From positions 1 to 14,800 of the IMG/VR virus record IMGVR_UViG_2617271085_000020: a stretch of DNA of 14,800 nt; one strand, given 5' to 3'. Every line of letters starts with the position of its first letter. The first letter of the stretch is position 1. Of this stretch, positions 1 through 14,800 are shown in pieces. The DNA comes from a virus (taxonomy: Duplodnaviria > Heunggongvirae > Uroviricota > Caudoviricetes). Below the pieces are notes generated by a model. The model had not been told where the DNA came from, ran no database searches, and saw nothing but the letters and a program-made list of their open reading frames with translations. A program made the translations under genes and the position numbers.

Positions 1-275
1 GTTAAGCGAGATTTTGTGCCTGGCAGGCCATTGGGTTGAGAATATTAGAGTATTGGAAGCGCATTATAAGTTCATTCCTGCTCACAGTGAAATCAGATGT
101 GTACGAAATCACATTTTTTGCCTTTGGCTTGAGTGTAGACCTTAAGCGAGGAGCAGGATCTTCTTTCAGACTTATGGCATAATGCGCGGTTTGTCATATC
201 TCTTTTCAGGATACGCCTGTGTTAGTTTCCAGTAACGTCACAATATAGTTTCAAAGCAACTAATTTTGCTGTGAA

Positions 276-1250: not shown

Positions 1251-3596
1251 TTACATTTTGCGTCTGTTTCCTGATTGAACAATTGATGTGATAATCTTTT
1301 CTTGCTTCTTGAGTTGTTCAGCAAACCAACGCTGATCAGTCACGTTTCCTTGTACGATTACACGAGCATCAATAGGCTGAGTCTTAGACTCGCTTTGATT
1401 ATTCAAGAAGTCTTTCAAATCTCCGTTAGTTCTCTGATCAACGACTCTTTCACCACCATCAAGCAGCCATGTTCCTTCTCTTGGAATTTCAGAAATGCCA
1501 TCGTGAGCCATACCAGTCATATTCACAGATTTCATGGACATAACTTGTCCTAAAACTTGCGCATAACTTGATGCGGCTAATGCGTATCCCAAAGGACCAG
1601 GATAAGTTGCCATTGCTTTAGTTGCAGATTGATATGCGTTTAACATACCATTTGCGATAGCTGTTCCTTTAGCTACTGCAAACGCAGCTTGAGCGGCTTT
1701 AGAGTTTTCACCCGAAATACCGGAAATAACACCAGCCATGCCTTGAGCAAAACCGTTATACATTCCCATTTTCGTTTGAATTTCCATCATAGCAATATTT
1801 TCAGACTGAACAGAATAAGCCTTGTCTAGTCGTCTTTTTTGCTCTAAAAATTGTTCATGCGACAAAAGTCCAGATTCGTACATTTTCTGATTCTGTTCTC
1901 TGAACCTTTCGAACTGTTGATTTAATGCTTCTTGCTCTAATGCCATTCTTTCTTCATCAGTTGCGAAACCAATTGAATTCAAGTTCTGCATATTCACCTG
2001 ATTAGCATCAATCTCTTTAATTGCTTTCATCTTCTCTTGATGTGCAATTTGGAGATTCTCTAACTGTTCGTTGTATTGCTGTTCTGAAATCAAGTTCTGT
2101 TGACGTTTAATATCCAGTTCTTGCTTTTGAATATCGAACATTTGATTCATCGACTGAGTGATAATGCCAATGTCAGCAGGATTAGCCTTAAGACTGTCGG
2201 AGAATTCTTTTGACGAGTTAATCAATAGAGAATTACGACGTTCTAGGAATTGCTCCTGTGAGATTATCCCTTTGTCTCTTAGTTCTTGAAGCTTTGTTAG
2301 TGCTTGCTGAGTCTGATTAATCTGAGAAGCATATGAACGTCCTTCTTGAGCAATAACCGCAACGTCTAACTGTTTCAGAGATTCAACTGCCTGAGCACGA
2401 TCAGCCATCATTTTGTCATAATCAGCTTTGGCTTTAGCCATTGCAGCTTTACGTTCCCTTTCGGCTTTATCAGCAGCAGATTTTCTTTCACGTTCAGCTT
2501 TATCAGCAGCGTCTTTTTCTTTCTTCGCTTTTTCTTCTAAGACTTTCTGGCGAGCCTTATTTGCCATCGTTTCTTGTTCAGCTAAACGAACTAGCTGATT
2601 AACTTGTTTTTTAAGCAACTTGGCATTTTCTGCAATAAACGCCTGACGCTTTTCAATTTCGATTGCTTCAACAGACTTTCCGATATTCTGCACTTGACCA
2701 GAGGACATACCAGAAGGAGTTATACCCTTTTTGTTATTCTCTCTTAGCCATTTCGCAAAAGACGTTTCACTCCAATCAATACCATCCATCCACTCATAAA
2801 GATTGTTAAATTCACGAACTAATGGACTAGCAGCTTCGACCGTGAATTCATTAGTTGCTTTCTTCAAAGAATTCATGTTTCTTTCATATTCTTTGAATTC
2901 GTCGGCAACGTCTTGAGTAATTGAAACTGTTTGACCTTGAATTGCGTTTAATGCGTCTTGGGTATTAGAAAAATTCTGTAATGTTGAAATCAAATGAGAA
3001 CCATCAGACGCCATTGATTCCATTGCGTTAGTAATTTCAGCAGATGATTTACCAGCGGCTCTTAATTGATAGAACGTGTCGATTAATGCTTTAATACCAC
3101 CTTCGGCATCACCAGCATATTTTGCATAATCTTCAAGTTTTAAACCCCATTCTTCTAAGTCGTCGGCAATACCACCACCGCCAGCTCTCAAAGAATCACC
3201 GAGTTTATCCATTGCGTCTTTGTTTAAATCACCGAATTTCTCAACGTCCATTCCGGTAGCTTTGAACGTTGATTGCAACTGTTGAAGCATTTCAATAGAA
3301 ACGCCAGTTGTTGTGTTAACCTGATTTAATACGTTAACAGTTTCAGCAGCTTTATTAATTGCAGCAAAACCAGCACCTGCAACTAACCCCGCTGCACCCA
3401 ATGCGCGTAACGCAGGGGACATACTTTGAATCGTGCTGAGACCATCGCTGAGACCATTTAGTGGACCTGTGAAATTACTAAAAAGACCCTGAGCGGCTGA
3501 ATCAAGTTTATTCAGTTCGTCCATAGAGTCTTTTACAGCAGTAGACAGTCCTTTATTATCTCCGCGAATCTCAACATCATAACGAGAATTCGCCAT
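1251..3596 (-). CDS. Tail tape measure protein (781 aa)
   Basis: Large, strongly coiled-coil protein (e.g. KAKKEKDAADKAERERKSAADKAERERKAAMAKAK) with Gly/Ala-rich hydrophobic segments near both ends (LRALGAAGLVAGAGFAAI; AFAVAKGTAIANGMLNAYQ ... PGPLGYALAASSYAQVLG). It lies immediately downstream of a G/T chaperone-like ORF pair, with its ATG embedded in TAATAATG at the end of the T ORF. The assignment rests on architecture and context, not on a database hit. Confidence 0.6.
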   Translation of the reverse strand: MANSRYDVEIRGDNKGLSTAVKDSMDELNKLDSAAQGLFSNFTGPLNGLSDGLSTIQSMSPALRALGAAGLVAGAGFAAINKAAETVNVLNQVNTTTGVSIEMLQQLQSTFKATGMDVEKFGDLNKDAMDKLGDSLRAGGGGIADDLEEWGLKLEDYAKYAGDAEGGIKALIDTFYQLRAAGKSSAEITNAMESMASDGSHLISTLQNFSNTQDALNAIQGQTVSITQDVADEFKEYERNMNSLKKATNEFTVEAASPLVREFNNLYEWMDGIDWSETSFAKWLRENNKKGITPSGMSSGQVQNIGKSVEAIEIEKRQAFIAENAKLLKKQVNQLVRLAEQETMANKARQKVLEEKAKKEKDAADKAERERKSAADKAERERKAAMAKAKADYDKMMADRAQAVESLKQLDVAVIAQEGRSYASQINQTQQALTKLQELRDKGIISQEQFLERRNSLLINSSKEFSDSLKANPADIGIITQSMNQMFDIQKQELDIKRQQNLISEQQYNEQLENLQIAHQEKMKAIKEIDANQVNMQNLNSIGFATDEERMALEQEALNQQFERFREQNQKMYESGLLSHEQFLEQKRRLDKAYSVQSENIAMMEIQTKMGMYNGFAQGMAGVISGISGENSKAAQAAFAVAKGTAIANGMLNAYQSATKAMATYPGPLGYALAASSYAQVLGQVMSMKSVNMTGMAHDGISEIPREGTWLLDGGERVVDQRTNGDLKDFLNNQSESKTQPIDARVIVQGNVTDQRWFAEQLKKQEKIITSIVQSGNRRKM
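2448..2510 (-). repeat. Near-tandem 30-nt repeat (two copies, 33-nt period) inside the tape measure gene, encoding AADKAERERK twice
   Basis: Plus-strand copies at 2448-2477 and 2481-2510. The peptide is identical in both copies but three codons differ synonymously (gcc/gct, agg/cgt, cgt/aga). Confidence 0.6.
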
Positions 3597-3598
3597 TA

Positions 3599-3946
3599 TT
3601 ATTTCCTATTTTTAGCTTTTGCTTTCGCAAGAAGTTTCGGGTCGAACATAGATTCCATTTTCTTTCTGTTGGCTTCTGCGGCTTTTTTCTGTTCTTCTTC
3701 CAGTTCTTCAGGAGATTTAAAAACTTTATCCTTGATGAACATGAAATCTTTCAGTTTTAATTTCTTCGAACCTTCTTTTGTAATATTTGGATTATTAGCA
3801 AAAACAGAAAATGCTATATGCGCTTGATGTAAGTCATTTACAGCAGGACCTTGAGGTTCAATGAAAGTTTCATATATCCACAGTTCATAGAAATCCTTAA
3901 TACTCATATCCAGAATTTCACGTTCGGTAAAACCTCTACGCAACAT
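3599..3946 (-). CDS. Tail assembly chaperone T-like ORF, probably expressed as a G-T fusion by -1 frameshift
   Basis: The ORF is in the -1 frame relative to the upstream 98-aa ORF. Its reading frame is open upstream of its own ATG as far as 4093, overlapping the last ~37 codons of the G-like ORF. There is no Shine-Dalgarno sequence in front of its ATG (aaattcagaaccATG). It sits immediately upstream of the tape measure gene and has a basic, Lys-rich C-terminus. Confidence 0.45.
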   Translation of the reverse strand: MLRRGFTEREILDMSIKDFYELWIYETFIEPQGPAVNDLHQAHIAFSVFANNPNITKEGSKKLKLKDFMFIKDKVFKSPEELEEEQKKAAEANRKKMESMFDPKLLAKAKAKNRK

Positions 3947-3981: not shown

Positions 3982-4278
3982 TTAATTCTTTTCCACAGCG
4001 TGAGTTTCTTCTTTCATAACAGAAGCAGCAGAAACAGCAGCAGAAAGTTGAGCGCGAACGGTGGTATAAAGTTGTTTGACTTGTTCGATATTTTCAAAAA
4101 CAGGGGATCCGTCTTCGTTCTCAATGCATTTCAGAATCATATTATCGGTCTGGTCTTCCATAAAAAAGAATTTACCAAATTCTTCAACGGTCATTGCGCG
4201 AACATAAAATTTAAAACCTTTGATTTCTACAACTTCTCGTTTTGCTCCGAGAGCGGCGATCATTTCTTCGAATTTCAT
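3982..4278 (-). CDS. Tail assembly chaperone G-like protein (98 aa)
   Basis: Small acidic ORF directly upstream of the T-like ORF and tape measure gene, preceded by an AGGA ribosome-binding site. This is the canonical G / GT / TMP arrangement of long-tailed phages. Confidence 0.45.
   Translation of the reverse strand: MKFEEMIAALGAKREVVEIKGFKFYVRAMTVEEFGKFFFMEDQTDNMILKCIENEDGSPVFENIEQVKQLYTTVRAQLSAAVSAASVMKEETHAVEKN
3988..3994 (-). promoter_or_regulatory. Candidate -1 ribosomal slip site G GAA AAG near the end of the G-like ORF
   Basis: mRNA reads ...gct gtg gaa aag aat taa. A -1 shift at GAA-AAG would read GGA-AAA and continue in the open T frame. The heptamer is not a canonical X XXY YYZ motif, so the exact site is uncertain; the shift could occur anywhere in 3985-4093. 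Confidence 0.2.
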
Positions 4279-4694: not shown

Positions 4695-5234
4695 TTATTT
4701 AGTAGCAACACGACGAACCGTTTTTATGATGTCATTACCAATATCAGTCCAAGAACCAATAGATTTCTTACGAGTTTGATGACGTTTGAAAATAGCAATA
4801 ACTCTTTTGTTCTGTTTTTTAACATTTGTCTTAATCAGAATCGTTCTGTTAATACCATCTTTCTTTTGTTTGACTGCCTCTAGGTTTCTACGAGTTTTTA
4901 ATCCTGGAATGTTACCGAACTGGTTAGTCGAACCTCTTACCCCTGTTGGAACATATTTGTTAATCGGACTGTTATCATCTATCAAGTGTGAAAGATAATT
5001 CGCCTGAACGTCTTTGATAAAGATTCTGTTAGTTGTTCCTTCTTTATCAATCTTAAATCTGAACCCAACGGCGTTCTTGGTGAAATTCACAGGTCCTTCA
5101 ACACGTCGATTAATCTTTCGTTGTAACTCAACAGAAGCGAGTTTAGACGCTTTAGTTACTCTTTTAGAGAACTGATCAGATTCTTTTATTCGCCATTTGT
5201 CTAAGTCTTTTTTAACTCCACCAAGTTTCGCCAT
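4695..5234 (-). CDS. Hypothetical highly basic (Lys/Arg-rich) 179-aa protein without cysteine
   Basis: Complete ORF whose start overlaps the stop of the upstream 70-aa ORF at 5234. The composition suggests a nucleic-acid-binding or internal virion protein. No family recognised. Confidence 0.45.
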   Translation of the reverse strand: MAKLGGVKKDLDKWRIKESDQFSKRVTKASKLASVELQRKINRRVEGPVNFTKNAVGFRFKIDKEGTTNRIFIKDVQANYLSHLIDDNSPINKYVPTGVRGSTNQFGNIPGLKTRRNLEAVKQKKDGINRTILIKTNVKKQNKRVIAIFKRHQTRKKSIGSWTDIGNDIIKTVRRVATK

Positions 5235-5446
5235 TACATACTCCCAAATGAAACAATTGCAAAGATATATTTCATAGCTTCATCAAGAGGAACGATAGGA
5301 AGAACTATTCCGAAGAAACTCAATGCACACGGAACAACGATGTAATTATAAACAGCCATTGCAATCATCGCGTAAATGAATTTCTTTTTAAAGTCCCCTG
5401 TCATTGCTGGAAGTTTCTTGAATGCAGCTTTCATTTTTTCAATCAT
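5234..5446 (-). CDS. Small hydrophobic membrane protein (70 aa), holin-like in size and topology
   Basis: Basic N-terminus (MIEKMKAAFKKLPAMTGDFKKK) followed by two to three hydrophobic segments. It overlaps the end of the nuclease gene by 8 nt. It lacks the charged C-terminal tail typical of holins, so the holin call is tentative. Confidence 0.4.
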   Translation of the reverse strand: MIEKMKAAFKKLPAMTGDFKKKFIYAMIAMAVYNYIVVPCALSFFGIVLPIVPLDEAMKYIFAIVSFGSM

Positions 5447-5894
5447 ACTTCACCTTTAAATTTTGTTTGTACAAGTTAATGAGAGATTTTTTATCACCAA
5501 CTGGATTTATGTCCTCTGCTAATAAAGTCTCTTTCATTTGCTTTAACGTCATTTTCGAAAAGCGCTTTGATAGGTCTGTTACAAGTTGAGGATGAATAGG
5601 ATTTTTAGAATTATCTTTTTCGAGATAAGTTACCAATCTTTTTAAAAAATCAATATATTCGATGTGCTTCGCTAAACCTGAATACATGAATTGATGTTTT
5701 AATCTGCCCTCAAGGACGTTTGCCTGTGCGAGTAATAATCCTCGGCATCGTCCAGCTTGAGAACCATCAAGAGCGTGGTCATGGTCTAAATGGGCTTTAT
5801 TAACATCGGTAATTTCTATCCCAGTTAAAGCACATCTTTTATTTTGTTTATCAAAAAGGGTTTTCTTGTAATTATTTATTTCTTTTCGTTTCAC
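5439..5894 (-). CDS. Endonuclease VII-like (T4 gp49 family) junction-resolving nuclease, 151 aa, GTG start
   Basis: The motif KAHLDHDHALDGSQAGRCRGLLLAQANVLEGRLKHQF aligns with the T4 Endo VII catalytic core (ANHLDHDHELNGPKAGKVRGLLCNLCNAAEGQMKHKF, recalled from memory). The downstream ...VTYLEKDNSKNPIHPQLV matches ...LTYLKSDYTQNNIHPNFV. The catalytic Asp/His/His/Asn/Glu positions are conserved. Confidence 0.6.
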   Translation of the reverse strand: MKRKEINNYKKTLFDKQNKRCALTGIEITDVNKAHLDHDHALDGSQAGRCRGLLLAQANVLEGRLKHQFMYSGLAKHIEYIDFLKRLVTYLEKDNSKNPIHPQLVTDLSKRFSKMTLKQMKETLLAEDINPVGDKKSLINLYKQNLKVKYD

Positions 5895-6168
5895 TGTCTA
5901 TCACCGCTAATCGAATTTCGATTTCTCTAATTCGATTGTCTATACTTTTCATATCACCTTTAAACTCCTTAAACGAATCACGAACGTTGGTTAATTCAGT
6001 ATTTGCGTTTGAATCGGTCGCACTATTAAGAGCAACGCTTTTCTCGATTTCAGATAGTCTCTGTTCGATTTTTAAAGCGTCGGCTTCCATTGCGTTCTTT
6101 TGAGACCAAATCCATCCAAAGCCAGCGCATAGCAGTCCCGCGAAAGAAATGATGGCTTCAACACCCAT
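5872..6168 (-). CDS. Membrane-anchored coiled-coil protein (98 aa): one N-terminal transmembrane segment then a coiled coil; possible spanin, holin or antiholin-like protein
   Basis: N-terminus MGVEAIISFAGLLCAGFGWIW is hydrophobic; the remainder is heptad-like and charged (EADALKIEQRLSEIEKS ... IREIEIRLAVIDSE). Preceded by an AAGGAG ribosome-binding site. Function not established. Confidence 0.4.
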   Translation of the reverse strand: MGVEAIISFAGLLCAGFGWIWSQKNAMEADALKIEQRLSEIEKSVALNSATDSNANTELTNVRDSFKEFKGDMKSIDNRIREIEIRLAVIDSETKRNK

Positions 6169-6229: not shown

Positions 6230-9200
6230 TCAAACTTTACTGATAAAATAAACTGCCCTTGAGGCTTCTGCTCGGTTTAATTCGACCGTATAAGTTAAAT
6301 CAACAGCTTGTCCCGCTTCGATGTATGCGACACCACCGTTTGAACCGTTTAGAGATTGAGATTGAACGTAAACAACTTCTTGGCCGTTTGAGAGTCTTAA
6401 CCACGCTTTGCCACCACCCCAACCAGTACCACCAGAATAAGTTCTTCCGGCGATTGCAACGTTAGGAATAGCAATCATTCTTCTCCAACCAACAGCAGGA
6501 ATATGAACAGATCCCCACGGATCGACAAATCCCATTTTGATAACGTCACCTTCGATTCTGTCAGCGTAAACAGTCCCTGTGAAATAACCAGAACCACCTC
6601 TGATTTCTCCTGAGAAATAACCAGAATCAGCTTGAATATTTCCTTTAACTGTAACGTTTTGGAATGAAGCCCAACCATCTTTTCTAATTGTCCATCCTTG
6701 AGTACCACCGGAAGGAACCCAGTTATCAGAGGATATTTCCCAGGCAATTTGTGCTGAACCGATTTGAGCATTACCAATTTTCGCTGTTGTAATAGCACCG
6801 TCTTGAATCTGCGCGTTATTAATTGCAGCATTAGCAATTTTGGCATTATCAATTGCAGCATTAGCAATTTGAGCATTACCGATCGAAGCATTGCGAATCA
6901 TCGCGCTTTGTAAATAAACTCTATCATCTGCGACCATGAACGGTGGAACAGCATTAGGAGCAGTGTTATTATTTGTTATAGCAATCTTATCAGCGTTAAA
7001 AATAATGCTTGAGGCTTTATTTCCCGCAGCGTCCTTAGATGCCAACATACTAATACCAGCTACGACACCATCGGCGTTTGTAGAAACAGCCCATTTACTG
7101 TTAACAGTTCCTGCTAAATCGTCAACGCTTGCTTTTGCTTCGGTAGAAACAGTCGCGACCATATCCGTAGTTTCAGCTTTTAATTGGCTGATTTGTGAAG
7201 CTGTTGCAGCACGATCATCCGCTTGGGTTTTCTCAACTTCGGTTATAGCAGAGTTTAACTTACCGTCAAAATCAGCCGTTTGAATCGTAATAGCCTGATT
7301 GATAGCGCCTTGCGTTTCATTCGTTATCTGAGTATGCAACGTTGTATTAGACGTGCTGATCTTCTGATCAATCTCGGTTGTTACTTCCTGCTTAGTTGAT
7401 GTTATCTGAGTATCGGTATAAGCATTTGCGAGTTCTAAAGCGTCCTCGATAGCACCATCAACTCGTTGGTCTAAATCAAGCAAGTCGTTTAACTGGTCTT
7501 TCATATCTTCTGTCCATGGAATATCCCATTTCATGTTGATATAAACTGATTCAGTCCAAACTAATTGGTCTTGTCCGAAAACGTCATACCATGCAGCTCG
7601 AACATAATATTCACCGTCAACTAACGGGAAGTTTTCAATGAACTGGCTAGAACTCAACTGAACTTGATTAATGTCAGTGAATTCAGGATTATTTGAAACT
7701 TGAATAACAGTTCCAGAATAATCAGGTGCAACACTCATTGGATCGTTCCAAGAACACATCAATAATCCAGGACCATTCGAAGCAGTAAAACCGATTATTG
7801 CAGGAGCTTGATTATTTCTTACGATTAATTCAGTAGGTTCAGATCTTAAACCTGAATAACCAACAGCAGTGATTTCAAATTTAATTTCACGACTGATACC
7901 GTTTTGCTGGTTCATTCGTAAATCATAAATGAAGCTCAAATCTTTAGTTCTGTATACAACAGGTCTTTGTCCAGTGATTTTGATTTCGTAATACTGAAAT
8001 ACTTGTTCGAAAGTCTGTTGAACGCCGTCAACTTCGAATTTCTCTGAACTCTGATTATCCCATGCAAATTCAAATTGCGTTTGTTGCGTAACGTTGTTAT
8101 TAAACTCAGAGTTAACAAGTCTTAGACCACGAACTTTAGGCAGATTATAAACGACATCAGGGTTAACATTCATTGAATAAACCCATTCAGACGTATAGAA
8201 AACACCAGAAGCACAAACACGAATATCATATTTCTGCAATGGGTCCATGTTCATAATCAAGTAAGAATTTCCTGATGTGAATCCTGCTTGAGTCCATTGG
8301 TTTGTTCCTGCAACTGCATATTGAATATAAAAACCTGAACGGTTAAAATCTTGCTCTGAATTCCATGAAACTTTAAAAGTTCTTCCTAAAGCTGTTTCTG
8401 AAACGCTTGAAACTTTAAGATTCGTAGGAGCAATCAAGTATCCTTTGTTTGGTACGTTTGAACCGTTGTTATTAGGATCTTTCGCATAGTCTAAATCGGT
8501 ATAAACTTCTTCAATATATTCAGTAGCTGTGATGTTAACGATACCAGCAACGCCCTTATTCATTGAACGACTAACGTTAGTAACGCGCCATAACGAATCT
8601 TGCAAATTTAATTCATCAAAGTTAACTCTGATAACATCCCAAACTTGAATAGTATAGGAATCAGGAGAACTAAAGCTGATAATCTGTTTTAACAGTGATT
8701 TGTTACGTTCGATTGAAGCAAGTTTGTCCAATTGGTCTTTAGATTTCACAAAACGATAATTAACATCTTTCGCGATAATACGTTTATCATATTGAATTGT
8801 TTTGTCGGTCGTCACGTCAGATGGATAACGAAGAACTTGCTCGGAATAATCGATTGCAGGATCTTGATATTTCACGTTCAGCGTATTGTAATATTCCTCT
8901 GAACCACCTGAATTCAACGAAACTGAACCAGCAGAAATATTTTCTTCATCGAAATCAAATGAAACAACATCAGGACCATCGATTTTGCAATAAACTTGTC
9001 CGAATGATTCGAAAATCATTCCGTTAAAAGCACCTGCAAGCTGAGTTAAGTTTTCTTTAAACGTTGCGTTAGGGTCTGTTGCACCATCGGAAAATAGTTG
9101 ATTGCTTAAAGCATAATTTGCAGCAGCTTTAAAACTATCAAGGTTAATTTTATCAAGTGAAACTCCTAATCCGTATCGTTCGTTCGTCAGATAATCGACA

Positions 9201-9910
9201 ATCTGACTTGCACCGTTGCGAGATGGAACGATTTGTCCCGTGTTTAAGTCAGTAATCAAACGTCCTCTAACATCAACAGCGACCTGACTGTTAGGTTGTA
9301 GGATATCAGCTTGGTTTTGTAAGTCTGAATTTCGTTTCTGCATTACGATACAGCAAGAAGCGACACCGTTACCTGTAGCAGAAACAGGCCAGCCACTTGG
9401 GTCATTTCCTAAGTATTGTTCAGCAAGTTTGAAATGATGACCTTGTTCTTTACCAACAGAGAATTCAACTTGCACATAGTCTTGATATTGAGAAACGATT
9501 GAACCTCTTGAAACAATTCCATCACGATAAACGGCATCATTCAGAATACGCTTGTTATCGATATAAAGGTTTTTAAAGCTATCAACTTCACCTTCGGCAA
9601 TTGCAAAAATTTGCACCAAATAAGTCGTATCATTTCCTACAGCATCCCAAACGTTAATTGTTCCTGTGCGTTGTTCACCGTAGATAATCGGTAATACAGT
9701 TGAAGGATCAGACGTTGTTCCTAATGTTGTTGCGGTATCACTTGTATTAAATCGAGGAACAGTTGGTTGCATAGCTGTTGACATTAAAGCGGAAACAGCA
9801 GCAACAGCAACACCAATACCGATTGAAATAGCTAATGCCATCCCAGCGGCATAAGCAGCAAGACCAGCAGAAGCACCAGCGATGATTGCACCAATTGCGA
9901 CAATAGCCAT
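6230..9910 (-). CDS. Central tail fibre / host specificity protein, lambda gpJ-like, with an N-terminal gpI C-domain-like segment (1226 aa)
   Basis: The N-terminal 90 aa (hydrophobic Gly/Ala-rich stretch then ...STVLPIIYGEQRTGTINVWDAV) resemble the lambda gpI C-terminus (...NVLPVLYGEMRVGSRVVSQ). The remainder has fibronectin-III-like segments and a C-terminal region like lambda J (PPFMVADDRVYLQSAMIRNASIGNAQI ... GEIRGG ... DRIEGDVIK versus PMFVAQGNQIFMNDVFL ... TLRAEKIVGDIV). Lambda sequences are recalled from memory. Confidence 0.75.
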   Translation of the reverse strand: MAIVAIGAIIAGASAGLAAYAAGMALAISIGIGVAVAAVSALMSTAMQPTVPRFNTSDTATTLGTTSDPSTVLPIIYGEQRTGTINVWDAVGNDTTYLVQIFAIAEGEVDSFKNLYIDNKRILNDAVYRDGIVSRGSIVSQYQDYVQVEFSVGKEQGHHFKLAEQYLGNDPSGWPVSATGNGVASCCIVMQKRNSDLQNQADILQPNSQVAVDVRGRLITDLNTGQIVPSRNGASQIVDYLTNERYGLGVSLDKINLDSFKAAANYALSNQLFSDGATDPNATFKENLTQLAGAFNGMIFESFGQVYCKIDGPDVVSFDFDEENISAGSVSLNSGGSEEYYNTLNVKYQDPAIDYSEQVLRYPSDVTTDKTIQYDKRIIAKDVNYRFVKSKDQLDKLASIERNKSLLKQIISFSSPDSYTIQVWDVIRVNFDELNLQDSLWRVTNVSRSMNKGVAGIVNITATEYIEEVYTDLDYAKDPNNNGSNVPNKGYLIAPTNLKVSSVSETALGRTFKVSWNSEQDFNRSGFYIQYAVAGTNQWTQAGFTSGNSYLIMNMDPLQKYDIRVCASGVFYTSEWVYSMNVNPDVVYNLPKVRGLRLVNSEFNNNVTQQTQFEFAWDNQSSEKFEVDGVQQTFEQVFQYYEIKITGQRPVVYRTKDLSFIYDLRMNQQNGISREIKFEITAVGYSGLRSEPTELIVRNNQAPAIIGFTASNGPGLLMCSWNDPMSVAPDYSGTVIQVSNNPEFTDINQVQLSSSQFIENFPLVDGEYYVRAAWYDVFGQDQLVWTESVYINMKWDIPWTEDMKDQLNDLLDLDQRVDGAIEDALELANAYTDTQITSTKQEVTTEIDQKISTSNTTLHTQITNETQGAINQAITIQTADFDGKLNSAITEVEKTQADDRAATASQISQLKAETTDMVATVSTEAKASVDDLAGTVNSKWAVSTNADGVVAGISMLASKDAAGNKASSIIFNADKIAITNNNTAPNAVPPFMVADDRVYLQSAMIRNASIGNAQIANAAIDNAKIANAAINNAQIQDGAITTAKIGNAQIGSAQIAWEISSDNWVPSGGTQGWTIRKDGWASFQNVTVKGNIQADSGYFSGEIRGGSGYFTGTVYADRIEGDVIKMGFVDPWGSVHIPAVGWRRMIAIPNVAIAGRTYSGGTGWGGGKAWLRLSNGQEVVYVQSQSLNGSNGGVAYIEAGQAVDLTYTVELNRAEASRAVYFISKV
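6816..6875 (-). repeat. Tandem 30-bp direct repeat (two copies, about 27/30 identical) in the J-like gene, encoding the N-A-x-I peptide repeat region
   Basis: The 20-mer aattgcagcattagcaattt occurs at 6821-6840 and again at 6851-6870 with similar flanks. The protein here reads IANAAIDNAKIANAAINNAQI. Confidence 0.6.
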
Positions 9911-10326
9911 TATTTTCTCCTGTTAAAAATTAATTCGTATTCAAAATCTTTTACGTTTATCAAAGCGTATTTGTTGTTGTGTTCAATAATTGCTTTGTCG
10001 TTAAAGACAATCGACGCAACGTAATAAACTCGGCGTCTGTATGTTTTTTTAATTAAGACAATTGACCCTGTTTCGATAATGTTTGATTTTTCGAAATGCT
10101 TTTCACAAGCTTCTAAAACGTTATTAAAACCTGTAAGTTCTTTGCAGTGTTTTAAACCCGATTGAACAGAGTCATATTTGGAAATAAGTTTGCTTGCGTA
10201 ATCTGTTCCGCAAGTCATATCGATATATTCAGCGACAAGGATATTACAGTCGTTTTGACCGTATTTGTGTTCTTTGTTGATATAACGATTTAATAATTTT
10301 GATAAGTCAGCTTGAAATTTAAACAT
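9910..10326 (-). CDS. Lambda gpK-like tail assembly protein, NlpC/P60 (papain-like) domain only
   Basis: The motif KYGQNDCNILVAEYID resembles the lambda K catalytic-Cys region (HGVTDCYTLFRDAY), with a downstream His (IIEHNN). The stop overlaps the J-like start (TAATG at 9908-9912). The likely start is the ATG at 10326 (ribosome-binding site GAGGTG); the ORF track starts at GTG 10338. There is no JAB/MPN half. Confidence 0.45.
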   Translation of the reverse strand: MFKFQADLSKLLNRYINKEHKYGQNDCNILVAEYIDMTCGTDYASKLISKYDSVQSGLKHCKELTGFNNVLEACEKHFEKSNIIETGSIVLIKKTYRRRVYYVASIVFNDKAIIEHNNKYALINVKDFEYELIFNRRK

Positions 10327-10360
10327 TTTAAGATTCACCTCTGACTTTATTTAGAGCCAA

Positions 10361-10405: not shown

Positions 10406-10894
10406 TTAGCCTTCTGGAGTTGGAGCAGTCAAATCAACCAAAGCTTCGGCAATTGGACCACCATCAACACTCAGAGTCATAGCCTGTGCAGCAACTTCTG
10501 ATTCACCACCGGAATAAGTAGCGCTTGACAGGAAACCGTTATACATTTTTGCAACACCGATTTCTTTAGAAGCATCCATCCAATAAACGATTTTGAACTG
10601 ACCACGTTTACCATCTTCCGCAAGCTTATAAAGCTGATCATGAATAGACCCAGGAATATAGTTAACAGTCAAATCGATATCAGGAACAGAACCACGACCA
10701 ACCAGTTTACGGCTGTATTTGTGAGTAAAGTTAGGAGCAACGATTACCTCACGTTCGATACCAGTCGTAGGAAATGCGCCAACTTCAGGAACTTCTACGA
10801 ATTTCTCTGAGTCGATATCTTTGTTCAATACGTCAGAGTTGAAAAATACACTGACGTAAGAGCCAGCGAAAATATCATATGCTTTATCAGCCAT
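10406..10894 (-). CDS. Probable abundant virion structural protein (162 aa), possibly a major tail / tube-like protein
   Basis: Complete ORF with an AGGA ribosome-binding site, flanked by a stable hairpin upstream and a strong terminator downstream, which suggests high expression relative to neighbours. A loose resemblance to small siphovirus tail tube proteins (...KLAEDGKRGQFKIVYW...) is from memory only. Confidence 0.3.
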   Translation of the reverse strand: MADKAYDIFAGSYVSVFFNSDVLNKDIDSEKFVEVPEVGAFPTTGIEREVIVAPNFTHKYSRKLVGRGSVPDIDLTVNYIPGSIHDQLYKLAEDGKRGQFKIVYWMDASKEIGVAKMYNGFLSSATYSGGESEVAAQAMTLSVDGGPIAEALVDLTAPTPEG

Positions 10895-10959: not shown

Positions 10960-13815
10960 TTATTTAGCAAGTTCTAAAGCATCAAGACGCGCTTTTGTTT
11001 CTTTCAAATCAGCACTTAATTCCTTGATAGCATTAACAAGCAACGCGTTTACAGCAGCAGAGTTAACACCAAGAATTTCATCTTCGCCGAAAGAACTAAC
11101 AGCTTCTGGTAATACTTCTTTCAGTTCTTGAGCAATAATACCTGCTTCGCGAGTTACGAACGAATATTCAGTTTCTTTCAAATCTGATTTCTTATCGTAA
11201 ACGTAACCAGTTAACGTATTAACCTTATCAACTGCGTTTTCGATTTTTTCAAGATTTGATTTCAGACGTTTATCGGAAGTTGAAACCCAAGAAACAGCAT
11301 GGGCAGCACCATCAACGCTTCTAAATGTAAAGTTTGCACCTCTAACATGAAGCATGGCTTCATAAGCGCCGCCTGCTGGATTATAAATGTCCATTCCAGC
11401 AGACCATTCGGTTCCCCACTGAACAGATTTCCAAATGTTAATGCATTTATCAGTTGAACCCGCTTCTACGATCATTCCAGCAGGACGTTCACGCCATGCT
11501 CCCCAATCAGCCCAGCCATCAACTTGACCAACAATTAATGCGTTTGCGCTGCCTGTTCTGATATTATGAACATATACGCCACGAGAATCGTTTGGAGAAG
11601 AAACGCGCATAGTGGTTAATGAATTAATTCCCGCGTGGTCGAATGTTGCAACATGAACGCTATTTGCCAGAATTTCTAAGTTTCCATCAGTTCTTTGACG
11701 AATACCGGTGTCACCATCACCAAACGCAATTGAGTTTCCGCCTAGCACGTTAAGAGTATTAACACCGAAACTTGTTATCTGTCGGGTTTCAACTTTAGGA
11801 GTATCAACAATATTCGGTGATGCGAATCTTCCGTTTATATCAAATTCATAAATGGACTGATTTTTTCCGGCCATCGCAGCATGGTTCGGTTCAGAAACAC
11901 GTATTACACCTTTTCCGTACTGTGCACCGGCTCGAATTATTCCCATTTCAAAACGAGTATGATATCCATGCTGAGTTGACGTATTTTGCATTGCATATCC
12001 GGGATAATAATCGCTTTCGCCTGGAATAGACCCAAAGTCCAGTAAAACCGGAGGCGGCTGTTTCCATTGATCAGCCCAAGCGTGACTGTTTGTTGCTGCC
12101 CACTGAACACCACTAATTTCAACTCGGTTATCAAGAACTGCCATCGTGTTAATACCATTGGCATTAAGTTGAAGATGATTCTGTTTCAAAATAACAGCAG
12201 ATGATTGACCGGTGACCATGTTATTCTGGAAAAGAATGTCTGTATTCGCATCGGTCTTACCTAGCAACCAAGAGTTTTCTTTACCGTCGTTTTGTCCGCT
12301 AATATAAGAAGATCCGGCAGTTGCACTTATAAGCTTATACGCAGGACCGCCGCCATGTGCCTCAAATCTATTAGTTTTAAAGTTACCAGTTTCGTTCAGT
12401 GATGCAATCCAATTATCTGCACCAGTGCCATGCCACCATGTTAATGCTTGTGCGTATTTAGGATTATCGTGATGTGCCCATGCTAGTTCGTGCCACCATG
12501 AAGCTTCACCACATGCTCTAAAGTTTCGCATACGGTTAAAAGCTTGCGTAGATTGAGGCCAGTTGACCATGGAATAAATGTCATGCGTTCCGGGTGACTT
12601 ACCAGAAGTCACTATTCCCGCAAGAGGATGGGTCTGTCCACTTACTCTCAGACCATCAACTGAATCAATAAACGTAGCACCAGTTCCTCTCAGATAGTTA
12701 TGATATTTACCGGCATTTGACAATCCGAAATAAGTGTATCCGTCTCCGATTCCGTTTCCATCGGTCGTTGTATCGATTTTAAGCAAAGATGTGCCAGCAG
12801 GTGCCAGACCGTTAACGTTTCCTGCACCATCGCTTCTATATCTAATCGTAACTTGACGATTAAAAAAGTTTTGAGATCCTGCAACACTTGATACAACAAC
12901 ATTATTGGAATAAGTGTCTAACCAACCGTCTTCTCTCCATTTAAATCCTGTATCGGAATCTCCCATCATAATACTGTTAGCACCTAAACTATTAGGATTA
13001 GGACCCAAGTTAATATAATTTGCTTTGATACCGTCGGCATTCAATTTAGGAACAGTCAAGTCGCCAGTCATTGTGTCACCAGCTTTTGAAACCTTGGTAT
13101 TAATCATGTCGGTCAAAGTCTGATTATCAACAGTCAAACGATCATTAACAGCTTTAATCTTTGAATCTGCGTCGGCTTTGTTAGCGTCAACTTTCGTGTT
13201 AATAGTCGTATTGTTTAAATCAATCTTAGCGTTAAGACGATTGTCCAGCTCGGTGTTCGCTTCGGTCTGTTTCGTGTCGTTAGCGTTAACTTTATTCTCT
13301 AAAGCTGTCAGATTCGTTCCTGTTGCGTCGGAGACTTTCTTAATCTCTGAATCAACATAGTCTTTACGCGTTGCGTTATCAGCTTCAATTGGTGCAACTG
13401 GTAAACGTAAACGACCATTAACGAAATCATAAGTTGAATAACCTGTTGAAGCGTTTTTACCGTTCGAAACAACAACTTTCAAAGAGCCTTCGGAATCAGT
13501 TTGCTTTTCAGATTTCAATTCGACTTTTGCTTTACCGTGTTCATCTTCAAAAACGATAGAACTTTTCTCGGAATTTTTCAGAGAAATATCAGTGTCAGAT
13601 TTTAATTTATTTGCTTGAACGTCACCGATAAAAGTCTGTCCACCTTCGACGACAGAATCAGCACCATTACCGATATTAACGATTTCAGTTCCACGTTTCG
13701 TGAAAATGCTTTTATCGGTCATGTTAATAGCAATTTCACCTTCAAGCATTTTTGAAGCATCAGGTTTACGTCCTGCGACATCAGTCCTATAGTGTTTGAC
13801 TTTGTTATTAGCCAT
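10960..13815 (-). CDS. Long tail fibre protein (951 aa) with T4 gp37/gp36-like N-terminal region and C-terminal S74-type intramolecular chaperone domain
   Basis: N-terminus MANNKVKHYRTDVAGRKPDASKMLEGEIAINMTDKSIFTK resembles T4 gp37 ([41 protein letters not shown]). Internal TRKDYVD and GDTMTGDLTVP motifs are fibre-typical. The C-terminus (...TSDKRLKSNLEKIENAVDKVNTLTGYVYDKK ... GIIAQELKEVLPEAV ... LVNAIKELSADLKETKARLDALE) matches the autoproteolytic chaperone of T5 pb1 and K1F endosialidase-type fibres. T4 sequences are recalled from memory. Confidence 0.8.
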   Translation of the reverse strand: MANNKVKHYRTDVAGRKPDASKMLEGEIAINMTDKSIFTKRGTEIVNIGNGADSVVEGGQTFIGDVQANKLKSDTDISLKNSEKSSIVFEDEHGKAKVELKSEKQTDSEGSLKVVVSNGKNASTGYSTYDFVNGRLRLPVAPIEADNATRKDYVDSEIKKVSDATGTNLTALENKVNANDTKQTEANTELDNRLNAKIDLNNTTINTKVDANKADADSKIKAVNDRLTVDNQTLTDMINTKVSKAGDTMTGDLTVPKLNADGIKANYINLGPNPNSLGANSIMMGDSDTGFKWREDGWLDTYSNNVVVSSVAGSQNFFNRQVTIRYRSDGAGNVNGLAPAGTSLLKIDTTTDGNGIGDGYTYFGLSNAGKYHNYLRGTGATFIDSVDGLRVSGQTHPLAGIVTSGKSPGTHDIYSMVNWPQSTQAFNRMRNFRACGEASWWHELAWAHHDNPKYAQALTWWHGTGADNWIASLNETGNFKTNRFEAHGGGPAYKLISATAGSSYISGQNDGKENSWLLGKTDANTDILFQNNMVTGQSSAVILKQNHLQLNANGINTMAVLDNRVEISGVQWAATNSHAWADQWKQPPPVLLDFGSIPGESDYYPGYAMQNTSTQHGYHTRFEMGIIRAGAQYGKGVIRVSEPNHAAMAGKNQSIYEFDINGRFASPNIVDTPKVETRQITSFGVNTLNVLGGNSIAFGDGDTGIRQRTDGNLEILANSVHVATFDHAGINSLTTMRVSSPNDSRGVYVHNIRTGSANALIVGQVDGWADWGAWRERPAGMIVEAGSTDKCINIWKSVQWGTEWSAGMDIYNPAGGAYEAMLHVRGANFTFRSVDGAAHAVSWVSTSDKRLKSNLEKIENAVDKVNTLTGYVYDKKSDLKETEYSFVTREAGIIAQELKEVLPEAVSSFGEDEILGVNSAAVNALLVNAIKELSADLKETKARLDALELAK
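10963..11277 (-). other. Peptidase S74-like intramolecular chaperone domain (C-terminal ~105 aa of the fibre), predicted self-cleavage at the Ser preceding DKRLK
   Basis: Conserved S-D-x-R-x-K motif and the downstream amphipathic helices characteristic of the family. Confidence 0.6.
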
Positions 13816-13867: not shown

Positions 13868-14800
13868 TTAGAATGTTCCGGCGTCTAACGTTTCACCTTG
13901 AGCTACTGCGTTAACATCAACAGGAGTTGGTTTATTCGTAGGAGAATAAACTTCTTGACCTTTGACTTTCACCGAATCAGATTGAATTTCTTTAGTATTT
14001 AGATTGTCGATTTCAACAAGCGGGGCGTTTATCTTTTTGCGTACAGTCAAATAATCCTGAATCGTCAGTGAACCTTGTAACGTTCCTCCCGTAATAGGAA
14101 GCGCTCCAATGTCTTCTGTTGTAGGACGTTCAAGTTCTGTATAGACCTTAACCCAATTCGATTCATTGATTGTCCCGTCGGGATTCATCTGCTTGTTACG
14201 AATACGTATGCTAGGATTACCGATACTTGCTCCAATCAGTTCCCATCCTTGACCACTTGGATGCTGAATTGCCATAGCAGACGTGCCAGAGTTATATGGA
14301 TTATCAGTGTTAACCCCATCAACAGTTATCCATCTGTTACCAGTCAAAAGACCTAAATCTTTTACACCTTCGATTTCTTCTGTTCCTGCACCAACACCAT
14401 AATCGCCAACGTTTAACGGAGTTGAATACTCAGCGTAACCTGAAAATAATTTACCGTCTGGACTTAAAGTATAGTTGTTAATTACAGCGGAACTCTCAGA
14501 CCCGTTTGTTTCTTTCTTCGTAACATAAGCATCAAAGATATGATAAAGACCGGATTGTCTTTCTCTTGTATGTTCTGAATCGACAACATAAAGATTTCTA
14601 AATCGAAGTTTTTTCTTATTCATTAACGCATTGTCTAACAATTCGGAAACTTCATCATCAGATTCAAATATGCTTAAAACAGTGTTATCAATTGTTTGAT
14701 CACCTGATAATTTAACTTCAAAATCTTCTCGATAATCTTCGAGTGATTGAACTTGATTTGAAAATCCTATTACCGGAAAAGCAGCAACATTTTCAGTTTC
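13868..14800 (-). CDS. Tail fibre protein, 5'-truncated by the window edge (C-terminal 310 codons present)
   Basis: The frame is open from the stop at 13868 to position 14800 with no stop codon, so the ORF-track start (TTG at 14641) is only an internal codon. The C-terminal motif TEDIGALPITGGTLQGSLTIQDYL resembles T4 proximal-fibre (gp34) C-terminal motifs (SDIGALPSDNATMGNLTIRDFL, from memory). Confidence 0.6.
   Translation of the reverse strand, partial: ETENVAAFPVIGFSNQVQSLEDYREDFEVKLSGDQTIDNTVLSIFESDDEVSELLDNALMNKKKLRFRNLYVVDSEHTRERQSGLYHIFDAYVTKKETNGSESSAVINNYTLSPDGKLFSGYAEYSTPLNVGDYGVGAGTEEIEGVKDLGLLTGNRWITVDGVNTDNPYNSGTSAMAIQHPSGQGWELIGASIGNPSIRIRNKQMNPDGTINESNWVKVYTELERPTTEDIGALPITGGTLQGSLTIQDYLTVRKKINAPLVEIDNLNTKEIQSDSVKVKGQEVYSPTNKPTPVDVNAVAQGETLDAGTF

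Follow-up and report, generated by a model that had tools for sequence, protein, structure and literature searches.

A prophage tail-tip hub protein whose N-terminal module probably corresponds in cis to the C-terminal half of lambda gpI

A 1226-aa gpJ-like protein encoded on the minus strand (positions 6230 to 9910) of a window of viral DNA, 14,800 nucleotides in all, belongs to the gpJ / baseplate hub-central tail fibre family. We conclude that the gene probably specifies a trimeric tail-tip hub plus central fibre whose N-terminal ~96 residues correspond, within the same chain, to the C-terminal half of lambda gpI. Phage T5 and gene transfer agents already provide structurally solved examples of such one-chain layouts, and the prophage hub protein reveals no new mechanism. 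The prophage family does link the solved tip architectures of lambda, T5, and RcGTA at the sequence level, and could help decide which came first, multi-gene or single-chain hubs.

The gene is a single open reading frame without an internal stop. Its ATG at 9910 shares bases with the TAA of the upstream gene (TAATG), an overlap that suggests translational coupling, and a Shine-Dalgarno sequence, AGGAG, is read 6 nt before it (9917 to 9921, minus strand). We regard the start codon as sound because the N-terminal sequence is kept in every full-length homologue inspected and among homologues that are 47 to 99% identical. The window is part of an Escherichia coli prophage of siphovirus type. We also considered, and rejected, an origin in a large lytic relative of DCP80 (141 kb), as close homologues lie in Mb-size chromosomal contigs and window positions 1 to 256 match the core chromosome of E. 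coli. A tRNA scan of the whole window found none, and megablast of the hub/fibre gene against phage genomes returned no match.

The first-pass annotation had described the J-like protein as opening with a hydrophobic Gly/Ala-rich stretch and a motif resembling the C-terminal part of gpI, and hydropathy, BLASTP, and profile searches of PDB sequences agree with it. Residues 1 to 45 (9776 to 9910, minus strand) comprise two uncharged, Gly/Ala-rich hydrophobic helices equivalent to lambda gpI helices H1/H2 (about residues 101 to 155). Their mean Kyte-Doolittle hydropathy is 1.92, with 49% Gly+Ala (1.47 and 45% for gpI 101 to 155), and neither segment has a charged residue. The helices are followed by a polar linker (..PTVPRFNTSDTATTLGTTSDPST) at residues 46 to 71 (9698 to 9775, minus strand), which contains the invariant residues P52, D58, G64, and T65 and whose position matches the gpI plug (159 to 175) and the loop after it. 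The strand region, residues 72 to 96 (9623 to 9697, minus strand), matches gpI 189 to 212 and T5 pb3 262 to 286 and begins with VLPIIYGEQRTG (residues 72 to 83), the counterpart of VLPVLYGEMRVG at lambda gpI 189 to 200. The C-terminal half of gpI, ~101 to 223 (PDB 8IYK, 8XCG, 9E7M), is likewise made of two uncharged hydrophobic helices, a polar plug, and VLPxxYGExRxG strands. In the lambda tip, gpI 134/135 to 223 forms the lumen plug, which touches gpH and augments the gpJ sheets, and helices H1/H2 vanish from density upon LamB binding (PMC10721106, PMC11101478, PMC12617516; for the role of H1/H2, PMC11101478).

BLASTP of residues 1 to 160 against gpI aligned query 29 to 84 with gpI 141 to 200 (E 3e-5, 27% identity). 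Three family profiles (A1, A2, A5) searched against 177,635 PDB sequences returned gpI chains only, at E 2e-5 to 4e-5, with the best gpI chain per profile at 2.1e-5 to 2.5e-5; the next-best PDB match in one N-terminal profile search stood at E 0.44. Profile positions 4 to 45 align to gpI 112 to 155. The hydrophobic part is unnecessary for the match, because the one of these three profiles that is built on the non-hydrophobic residues 44 to 96 alone found only gpI in PDB (gpI 158 to 212, E 2.4e-5, bias 0.2). In one search, a 511-position profile (A3) matched gpI 112 to 215 (E 2.2e-4), T5 pb3 262 to 314, and the T1 gpJ-like chain. A local hmmsearch of A3 against concatenated lambda gpI and gpJ was collinear, with positions 4 to 103 aligned to gpI 112 to 218 and then 233 to 293 to gpJ 269 to 331; this was used instead of hhalign of A3 against a gpI-C+gpJ concatenate, which recovered the J core only. 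Over ~100 residues the match to gpI runs in the order helices, P-x-[RK], D, gap, VLPxxYGExRxG, strand. Judged from these alignments, residues ~4 to 100 are homologous to gpI ~112 to 215.

When 1.84e9 representative proteins were searched with profile A2, the 18 matches were mostly to the first ~100 residues of long J-type proteins (about 1000 to 2300 aa). The only split gpI above threshold was P0143 (210 aa, matched at 110 to 208), a genuine gpI that sits in a canonical Phage_min_tail / Phage_tail_L / NLPC_P60 / I / J cluster (M-L-K-I-J), where the J gene begins without the plug module. E-values for gpI are moderate, about 1e-5 in PDB and 8.7e-4 in the 1.84e9-protein library. A tblastn search of phages with lambda gpI 133 to 222 hit 1034 records; the annotated matches listed (60) were all separate "tail assembly protein I" or "tail protein" genes, from which we conclude that the one-chain forms are too diverged for this search. 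With residues 1 to 92 as the query, tblastn against phage genomes, limited by the short query and the low-complexity filter, gave only DCP80 (E 0.3).

The gpI N-terminal domain, which the first reading of the sequence had reported as absent from the window, is indeed missing there. Pfam gave no match to the ubiquitin-like domain of gpI (Lambda_tail_I, PF06805) in the N-terminus or in any open reading frame of the window, and the N-domains of lambda gpI and P0143, used as tblastn queries, found nothing in the window, in locus L005, or in L006, whose 48 kb cover a related prophage. The anticipated profile match of the N-terminus to the gpI family was obtained with our own family profiles but not with Pfam, for which scans of residues 1 to 92 and 1 to 160 at E<=10 gave no gpI match. 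The Pfam result is a false negative, since PF06805 models only gpI residues 14 to 97. The gap is thus one of the domain database: the Pfam gpI family is the ubiquitin-like half alone, and for this reason routine annotation misses the virion-incorporated half of gpI, whether it is separate or within J.

Downstream of the module, hub domains of HDII/III/IV type from the gpJ/pb3 family occupy residues 97 to 490 (8441 to 9622, minus strand), as indicated by Pfam (Phage-tail_3, 284 to 446), BLASTP to T5 pb3 (E 2e-15, query 73 to 488), and Foldseek. Fibronectin type III repeats follow at residues about 494 to 800 (7511 to 8431, minus strand; Pfam fn3 at 494 to 568), probably continuing past residue 637, where the match to phrog_31 "central tail fiber J" (2.5e-68) ends. 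Residues 926 to 1226 (6233 to 7135, minus strand) hold the tail tip fibre domain (DUF1983 / Phage_Tail_Tip; Pfam Phage_Tail_Tip 926 to 1024, E 2e-23) and a C-terminal putative receptor-binding region, with phrog_5269 at 1030 to 1214. In an AF2 model of residues 1 to 510, strands 79 to 83 and 85 to 91 come directly before the first hub-domain strands, 97 to 106 and 109 to 117. Mean pLDDT over 10-residue blocks is 80 to 85 in the strand region and 77 to 93 across residues 71 to 190; residues 1 to 70 are unplaced in this monomer model (pLDDT below 30). The strand motif and the hub domain are continuous in one polypeptide, as in T5 pb3. Foldseek matched the model to T5/DT57C pb3 (E 3e-22), lambda gpJ (1e-13), and RcGTA g15 (1.5e-11), and further to T1, Chi, and JBD30. 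BLASTP of query 92 to 156 against lambda gpJ 1 to 81 found nothing, and the equivalence of lambda gpJ ~23 to 53 with query ~97 to 124 is weak (Smith-Waterman shuffle p about 0.01).

Lambda gpI (223 aa) is encoded apart from gpJ, bears a ubiquitin-like domain at its N-terminus, and joins gpJ by sheet augmentation in trans, whereas the prophage module has no such domain and is covalently continuous with the hub. There is no separate gene between K and J, as there is for lambda gpI; the module lies within the single open reading frame, whose start is probably coupled to the K-like gene. In gene order, gpI-C immediately precedes the J hub domains in lambda, as the module does here. For the hub, the closest match in both structure and sequence is T5/DT57C pb3 (PDB 7ZHJ, 7ZQB, 8HQZ): query 72 to 124 aligns with pb3 262 to 314, the alignment extends to pb3 744, and FN3 follows the hub in both. 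In T5 pb3, one chain carries the plug tip 233-LFGL-236, directly after it IPVVYGVQK (residue 264), and then the next hub domain (bioRxiv 10.1101/2022.09.20.507954). Unlike the prophage protein, pb3 includes within its single chain a gpL-type HDI (residues 1 to about 200), its residues 1 to 261 are without counterpart, and its plug is a beta-hairpin rather than two hydrophobic helices; in T5, separate proteins (pb4, pb5) supply the fibre and receptor-binding parts.

Directly upstream lies a gene for a 138-aa gpK-like protein (9910 to 10326, minus strand), the start of which is likely the ATG at 10326 rather than the GTG at 10338. It had been said to retain only the NlpC/P60 half of gpK, and this is confirmed: the protein is a stand-alone NlpC/P60 fold, classed by Pfam as DUF6950 rather than NLPC_P60, and lacks the JAB/MPN half, whereas lambda gpK has Prok-JAB and NLPC_P60 domains (Pfam). 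Lambda gpK is a C40 peptidase. In the prophage protein the canonical catalytic His position appears to be Tyr, and activity is doubtful because DUF6950 has an invariant YY on the strand where NlpC/P60 enzymes carry the catalytic His. Next comes a 162-aa tail-tube-fold protein (10406 to 10894, minus strand; phrog_158 "major tail protein," 1e-12; weak Pfam Phage_TTP_12), which could be the major tail protein or a gpL/Dit-type ring partner. Neither this protein nor a 179-aa protein matched PDB sequences, the 162-aa protein showed no BLASTP match to the Dit-like and gpL-like proteins of a Vibrio phage, and Pfam found no Phage_tail_L in the window, where a gpL-type HDI partner was not identified.

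The arrangement of tube-fold protein, small NlpC/P60-fold protein, and hydrophobic N-terminal module joined to J bears more resemblance to RcGTA g13-g14-g15 than to an isolated rearrangement of lambda K-I-J. In RcGTA g15 and the megatron of roseophage R4C, iris/penetration domains at residues 1 to 46 and 1 to 45 are in the same chain as the hub, and their hydrophobic helices have been suggested to act as a gate for the channel and to go into the outer membrane; the gene for RcGTA g14, a 150-aa peptidase, precedes the megatron (PMC7296036, PMC10276861). In-chain hydrophobic N-terminal helices and a small NlpC/P60-type gene directly upstream are both found in the prophage. The domains that follow differ from those of the g15 and R4C megatrons, being FN3 and Phage_Tail_Tip in the prophage protein, and the RcGTA hub partner g13 has an Fe-S cluster, which the 162-aa protein, with zero cysteines, is unable to hold. 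The likeness to the megatron iris domain is architectural rather than a demonstrated homology, because the N-terminal profiles found no g15 chain in PDB at E<=10.

If the module behaves like its homologue in the solved lambda tip, the strands of residues 72 to 96 would belong to the sheets of the first hub domain, residues 46 to 71 would be the plug that shuts the tail channel and props the coiled coil at the C-terminus of the tape measure, and the helices of residues 1 to 45 would be kept within the tip lumen. The tape measure protein (781 aa; 1251 to 3596, minus strand; phrog_13674 "tape measure," 9.1e-62) would rest its C-terminus on the plug by analogy with lambda gpH and T5 pb2 (PMC10721106, PMC12617516). 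Binding of the C-terminal fibre to its receptor would then swing the hub domains open, and the freed plug and helices would insert into the outer membrane, allowing the tape measure protein and DNA to exit.

The first-pass annotation had called this a fusion and a rearranged K/I/J set; the gpI-C-like module on J stands, but the implied direction is not established, as pb3 and the megatrons are one-chain proteins. Because they keep one chain, the separate lambda gpI with its added ubiquitin-like domain may be the derived, split state. We tentatively propose that the prophage family provides a bridge, visible at the sequence level, which shows lambda-type gpI to be a fission product of a J-type hub; the module would first have been the N-terminus of a J-type protein (or internal, as in T5 pb3) and would later have separated from it and become attached to a ubiquitin-like domain. 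If true, the module is a widespread protein family so far without any Pfam model, and it marks the element with which many siphovirus tails penetrate the outer membrane of Gram-negative hosts, an element that could then be annotated systematically. The opposite course, a recent lineage-specific fusion in which loss of the gpI N-domain together with the I/J intergenic region welded gpI-C onto gpJ, and gpK lost its JAB half at the same time, appears unlikely. It agrees with the order K-like, I-C, J, as in lambda K-I-J, and with the scores of a single profile, 22.8 bits for the module against lambda gpI and 1.5 bits for the hub against lambda gpJ. However, the hub is nearer T5 pb3 than lambda gpJ by Foldseek and by BLASTP (2e-15 for pb3 versus 3e-3 for the best hub-region pair with lambda gpJ), and the strand motif is already in cis in pb3. 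Moreover, one chain is found in many divergent J-like proteins (1000 to 2300 aa), in Vibrio phages, and, architecturally, in RcGTA and R4C, and the remaining tail module departs from lambda order, with the tape measure gene last.

That the module is made within J and then cleaved during assembly, releasing a separate gpI-C-like peptide of lambda-like function, is highly improbable. Tail-tip proteins are often processed, lambda gpH among them (PMC12617516), and an active protease encoded next door could in principle cut; yet strands 72 to 96 run straight into the following strands of the hub where the model is confident, solved structures of T5 pb3 keep the strand region within a single chain, we see no conserved cleavage motif, and the activity of the DUF6950 protein is in doubt. 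Least credible of all is a generic membrane anchor or signal-like stretch matching gpI through composition and a short common motif: Gly/Ala-rich hydrophobic segments do produce spurious matches, Pfam is silent on the segment, and identity to gpI is low, but this idea is largely refuted by the gpI-only match of residues 44 to 96, and the collinearity over about 100 residues, the recovery of a true gpI from the whole library, the extent of PF06805, the lack of a positively charged n-region or cleavage-site pattern, and the conservation of the N-terminus among homologues all stand against it.

The in-cis equivalent of gpI-C is common in enterobacterial prophages rather than a rare rearrangement. 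We found >300 homologues, from Klebsiella, Enterobacter, Citrobacter, E. coli, Serratia, Pantoea, and other hosts. A word-indexed homologue search succeeded with an 800-residue query; residues 1 to 222 gave only 7 fragmentary matches. Homologues are now labelled only "phage tail tip fiber protein," "DUF1983," or "hypothetical," and their first ~96 residues gain an annotation as a channel plug and putative outer-membrane-inserting helices.

The minus-strand open reading frame (ORF) at 6230-9910 encodes a gpJ-type hub/central fibre of 1226 aa. Its ATG shares bases with the stop codon of the preceding gene (TAATG) and has an AGGAG 6 nt to its 5' side. The product matched phrog_31, "central tail fiber J," at 2.5e-68, and Pfam placed Phage-tail_3 at residues 284-446, fn3 at 494-568, and Phage_Tail_Tip at 926-1024. 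We modeled residues 1-510 with AlphaFold2 from 18 homologues (mean pLDDT of 63 overall, with ten-residue block means of 77 to 93 at residues 71-190). Foldseek related this model to pb3 of T5/DT57C (E 3e-22), lambda gpJ (1e-13), and RcGTA g15 (1.5e-11), with further matches to JBD30, Chi, and T1.

The first-pass annotation had likened the N-terminus of this protein to the C-terminal part of lambda gpI, a resemblance that the alignments bear out. Residues 1-45 carry no charge and have 49% Gly+Ala and a mean hydropathy of 1.92, close in composition to gpI 101-155 (45%, 1.47, no charge). A polar segment follows, ..PTVPRFNTSDTATTLGTTSDPST, and then VLPIIYGEQRTG at 72-83; gpI 155-200 (from NC_001416) reads ..APKARTPRIQTTDNG..(insert)..VLPVLYGEMRVG. 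BLASTP of residues 1-160 against gpI gave E 3e-5, with query 29-84 aligned to gpI 141-200. When a six-sequence N-terminal profile was searched against 177,635 distinct PDB sequences at E<=10, only lambda gpI chains were returned, with 8iyk_I on top (E 2.1e-5, profile 6-95 on gpI 119-211). A 14-sequence profile again found gpI (E 2.2e-5), the following match having an E value of only 0.44. Composition is not the cause of the resemblance, since a profile of the nonhydrophobic residues 44-96 alone still matched only gpI (158-212, E 2.4e-5, bias 0.2). A single PDB search with a profile of residues 1-510 recovered gpI 112-215, T5 pb3 262-314 with further pb3 segments reaching 744, and a gpJ-like chain of T1; on an artificial concatenate of lambda gpI and gpJ, the matches to the two proteins occur in collinear order. 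The reading of the first ~96 residues as a gpI-C-like module at the N-terminus of J is thus supported, with caveats that concern the direction of the change and its rarity.

A Pfam scan of this N-terminus was empty. On lambda gpI, Pfam Lambda_tail_I (PF06805) covers residues 14-97 only, the ubiquitin-like domain, so the empty scan is uninformative about the C-terminal half, and for the same reason the Pfam-type test first proposed would have failed. The virion-resident half of gpI is without any domain model. As the first-pass annotation had it, the gpI N-terminal domain is absent: no ORF in the window had a Pfam match to it, and tblastn with two gpI N-domains found nothing in the window, in a near-identical 20-kb contig, or in a 48-kb E. 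coli PSS-15 region with a related prophage. Full-length gpI queries do pick up the N-terminus of J by tblastn. The analysis also improves the annotation of a prophage protein that is common.

A complete HMMER search with the N-terminal profile, over 1.84 billion representative proteins (E<=1e-3), matched 18 of them. Most are J-type proteins of about 1000 to 2300 aa in which the match spans the first ~100 residues. Also among the 18 was a true gpI of 210 aa (P0143; Logan SRR28201393 contig, 2055-2687), matched over residues 110-208 and encoded in a canonical M-L-K-I-J cluster (Phage_min_tail / Phage_tail_L / NLPC_P60 / I / J). The neighboring J begins with a Gly-rich tail, then VKVVDLIGEGEV, and is without the module. 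P0143 had no match to Lambda_tail_I at E<=0.001, so the N-domain model, too, misses diverged members; its N-terminal region is visibly like that of lambda gpI.

Module and hub do lie in one chain, as the proposal of a gpI-gpJ fusion had held, but the arrangement is not peculiar to this phage. In T5 pb3, IPVVYGVQK at residue 264 is in one chain with the hub strands that follow and stands directly behind the plug, with a membrane-inserting tip at 233-LFGL-236 (bioRxiv 10.1101/2022.09.20.507954). The authors of the lambda structure had proposed already that pb3 is equivalent to gpL plus gpI plus the N-terminal part of gpJ and had drawn a parallel between RcGTA genes 13-14-15 and lambda L-K-I-J (PMC10721106). 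The megatrons of RcGTA (g15) and R4C begin with hydrophobic "iris/penetration" domains that gate the channel (residues 1-46 and 1-45), and a 150-aa peptidase gene precedes each megatron gene (PMC7296036, PMC10276861). Our N-terminal profiles detected no sequence similarity to the g15 N-terminus among PDB sequences, so this link is architectural only. According to a 2026 paper, a hub subunit may consist of a single polypeptide (T5) or of as many as three (lambda) (PMC13243795). The hub part of the present protein is nearer to T5 pb3 than to lambda gpJ, which, together with the wide spread of one-chain forms, favors an old one-chain state; the change may have been a fission in lambda rather than a fusion here.

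In lambda, cryo-EM identifies gpI residues 134/135-223 as a structural "insertion" protein; within the lumen of the tip, its trimer closes the channel and gives support to the C-terminal coiled coil of the tape measure (PMC10721106, PMC11101478, PMC12617516). In the closed state gpI is visible from residue 101 and shows two hydrophobic helices, H1/H2, then a plug at 159-175 and strands; once LamB has bound, it is seen from residue 167 onward only, and outer membrane entry has been proposed for H1/H2 (PMC11101478). The same three elements occur in identical order in the J-like protein, where the hub follows directly. From this order we infer the gpI mechanism in cis: the N-terminal module would provide both the plug and the membrane-entering helices within the hub polypeptide.

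A search with an 800-residue query returned 300 homologues, the best 120 of which have 47 to 99% identity, are often on Mb-size contigs, and come from Klebsiella, Enterobacter, Citrobacter, E. coli, Raoultella, Serratia, and Pantoea under the names "phage tail tip fiber protein" or "DUF1983." Every full-length homologue inspected has the same N-terminus, in which P52, D58, G64, Y77, and R81 are among the conserved residues. Yersinia, Salmonella, and other assemblies have remoter one-chain forms, as do Escherichia phage DCP80 (45% identity) and Vibrio phages, the latter with a shorter single helix. In E. coli 2021CK-01361 (NZ_CP107720.1, 3269916-3281630; protein P0001) an IS5-family element splits the gene, leaving a truncated 339-aa product, and several database entries, P0003 and P0128 among them, are frameshifted or truncated copies. 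Among cultured phages, DCP80 (PQ671644.1) has the closest homologue. Its genome of 141 kb is assigned to Straboviridae/Gaprivervirus, and motA and endonuclease VII occur near the J-like gene; a siphovirus J-type hub in a T4-like record looks inconsistent and may reflect misclassification.

Positions 1-256 match 5423 of 5426 complete E. coli genomes (>=95% identity in nearly all; 99.6% among the matches listed) in the region flanking ldtB. This is E. coli core sequence, so the window spans a prophage/chromosome junction; a related prophage lies beside ldtB in seven complete E. coli genomes. By ORF calling, the window has a run of genes on the minus strand. The late operon starts with terminase, portal, protease/capsid, and small proteins, then a 342-aa protein and a fibre with an S74 chaperone domain; it continues with a 162-aa tube-fold protein (10406-10894), the K-like DUF6950 protein (9910-10326), and the J-like gene. 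Next come genes for a 98-aa protein, endonuclease VII, a 70-aa protein, a 179-aa minor tail protein, and a 117-aa protein, followed by G/T-like chaperones (3982-4278, 3599-3946) and, as the last gene at the very end of the prophage, the 781-aa tape measure (1251-3596). This order differs from that of lambda in that fibre, tube-fold, K-like, and J-like genes come first and chaperones and tape measure last. BLASTP of the 162-aa protein against Dit-like and gpL-like proteins of Vibrio phages, and PDB sequence searches with the 162-aa and 179-aa proteins, identified no gpL-type partner.

The tail operon includes a T4-type endonuclease VII gene (5439-5894, minus strand; Pfam Endonuclease_7 and its dimerisation domain), which follows J and precedes the tape measure. 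The 98-aa protein (5872-6168) has an N-terminal hydrophobic segment and weak Pfam matches to coiled-coil families, and the hydrophobic 70-aa protein (5234-5446; phrog_2024, function unknown) is probably a membrane protein. The stretch from the junction to the tape measure gene (257-1250) has two plus-strand ORFs, encoding 156 aa with a hydrophobic C-terminus (357-827) and 118 aa (824-1180). Neither has a Pfam or PHROG match; both are present in the near-identical contig and missing from the PSS-15 prophage, so they may be variable cargo. In the 951-aa side fibre (10960-13815, minus strand), a gp37-like trimerisation region is combined with an S74 intramolecular chaperone domain at the C-terminus. 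The preceding fibre-like ORF (13868-14641, minus strand) is listed as 257 aa rather than the 342 aa of related contigs, a difference due to truncation close to the edge of the window or to another start.
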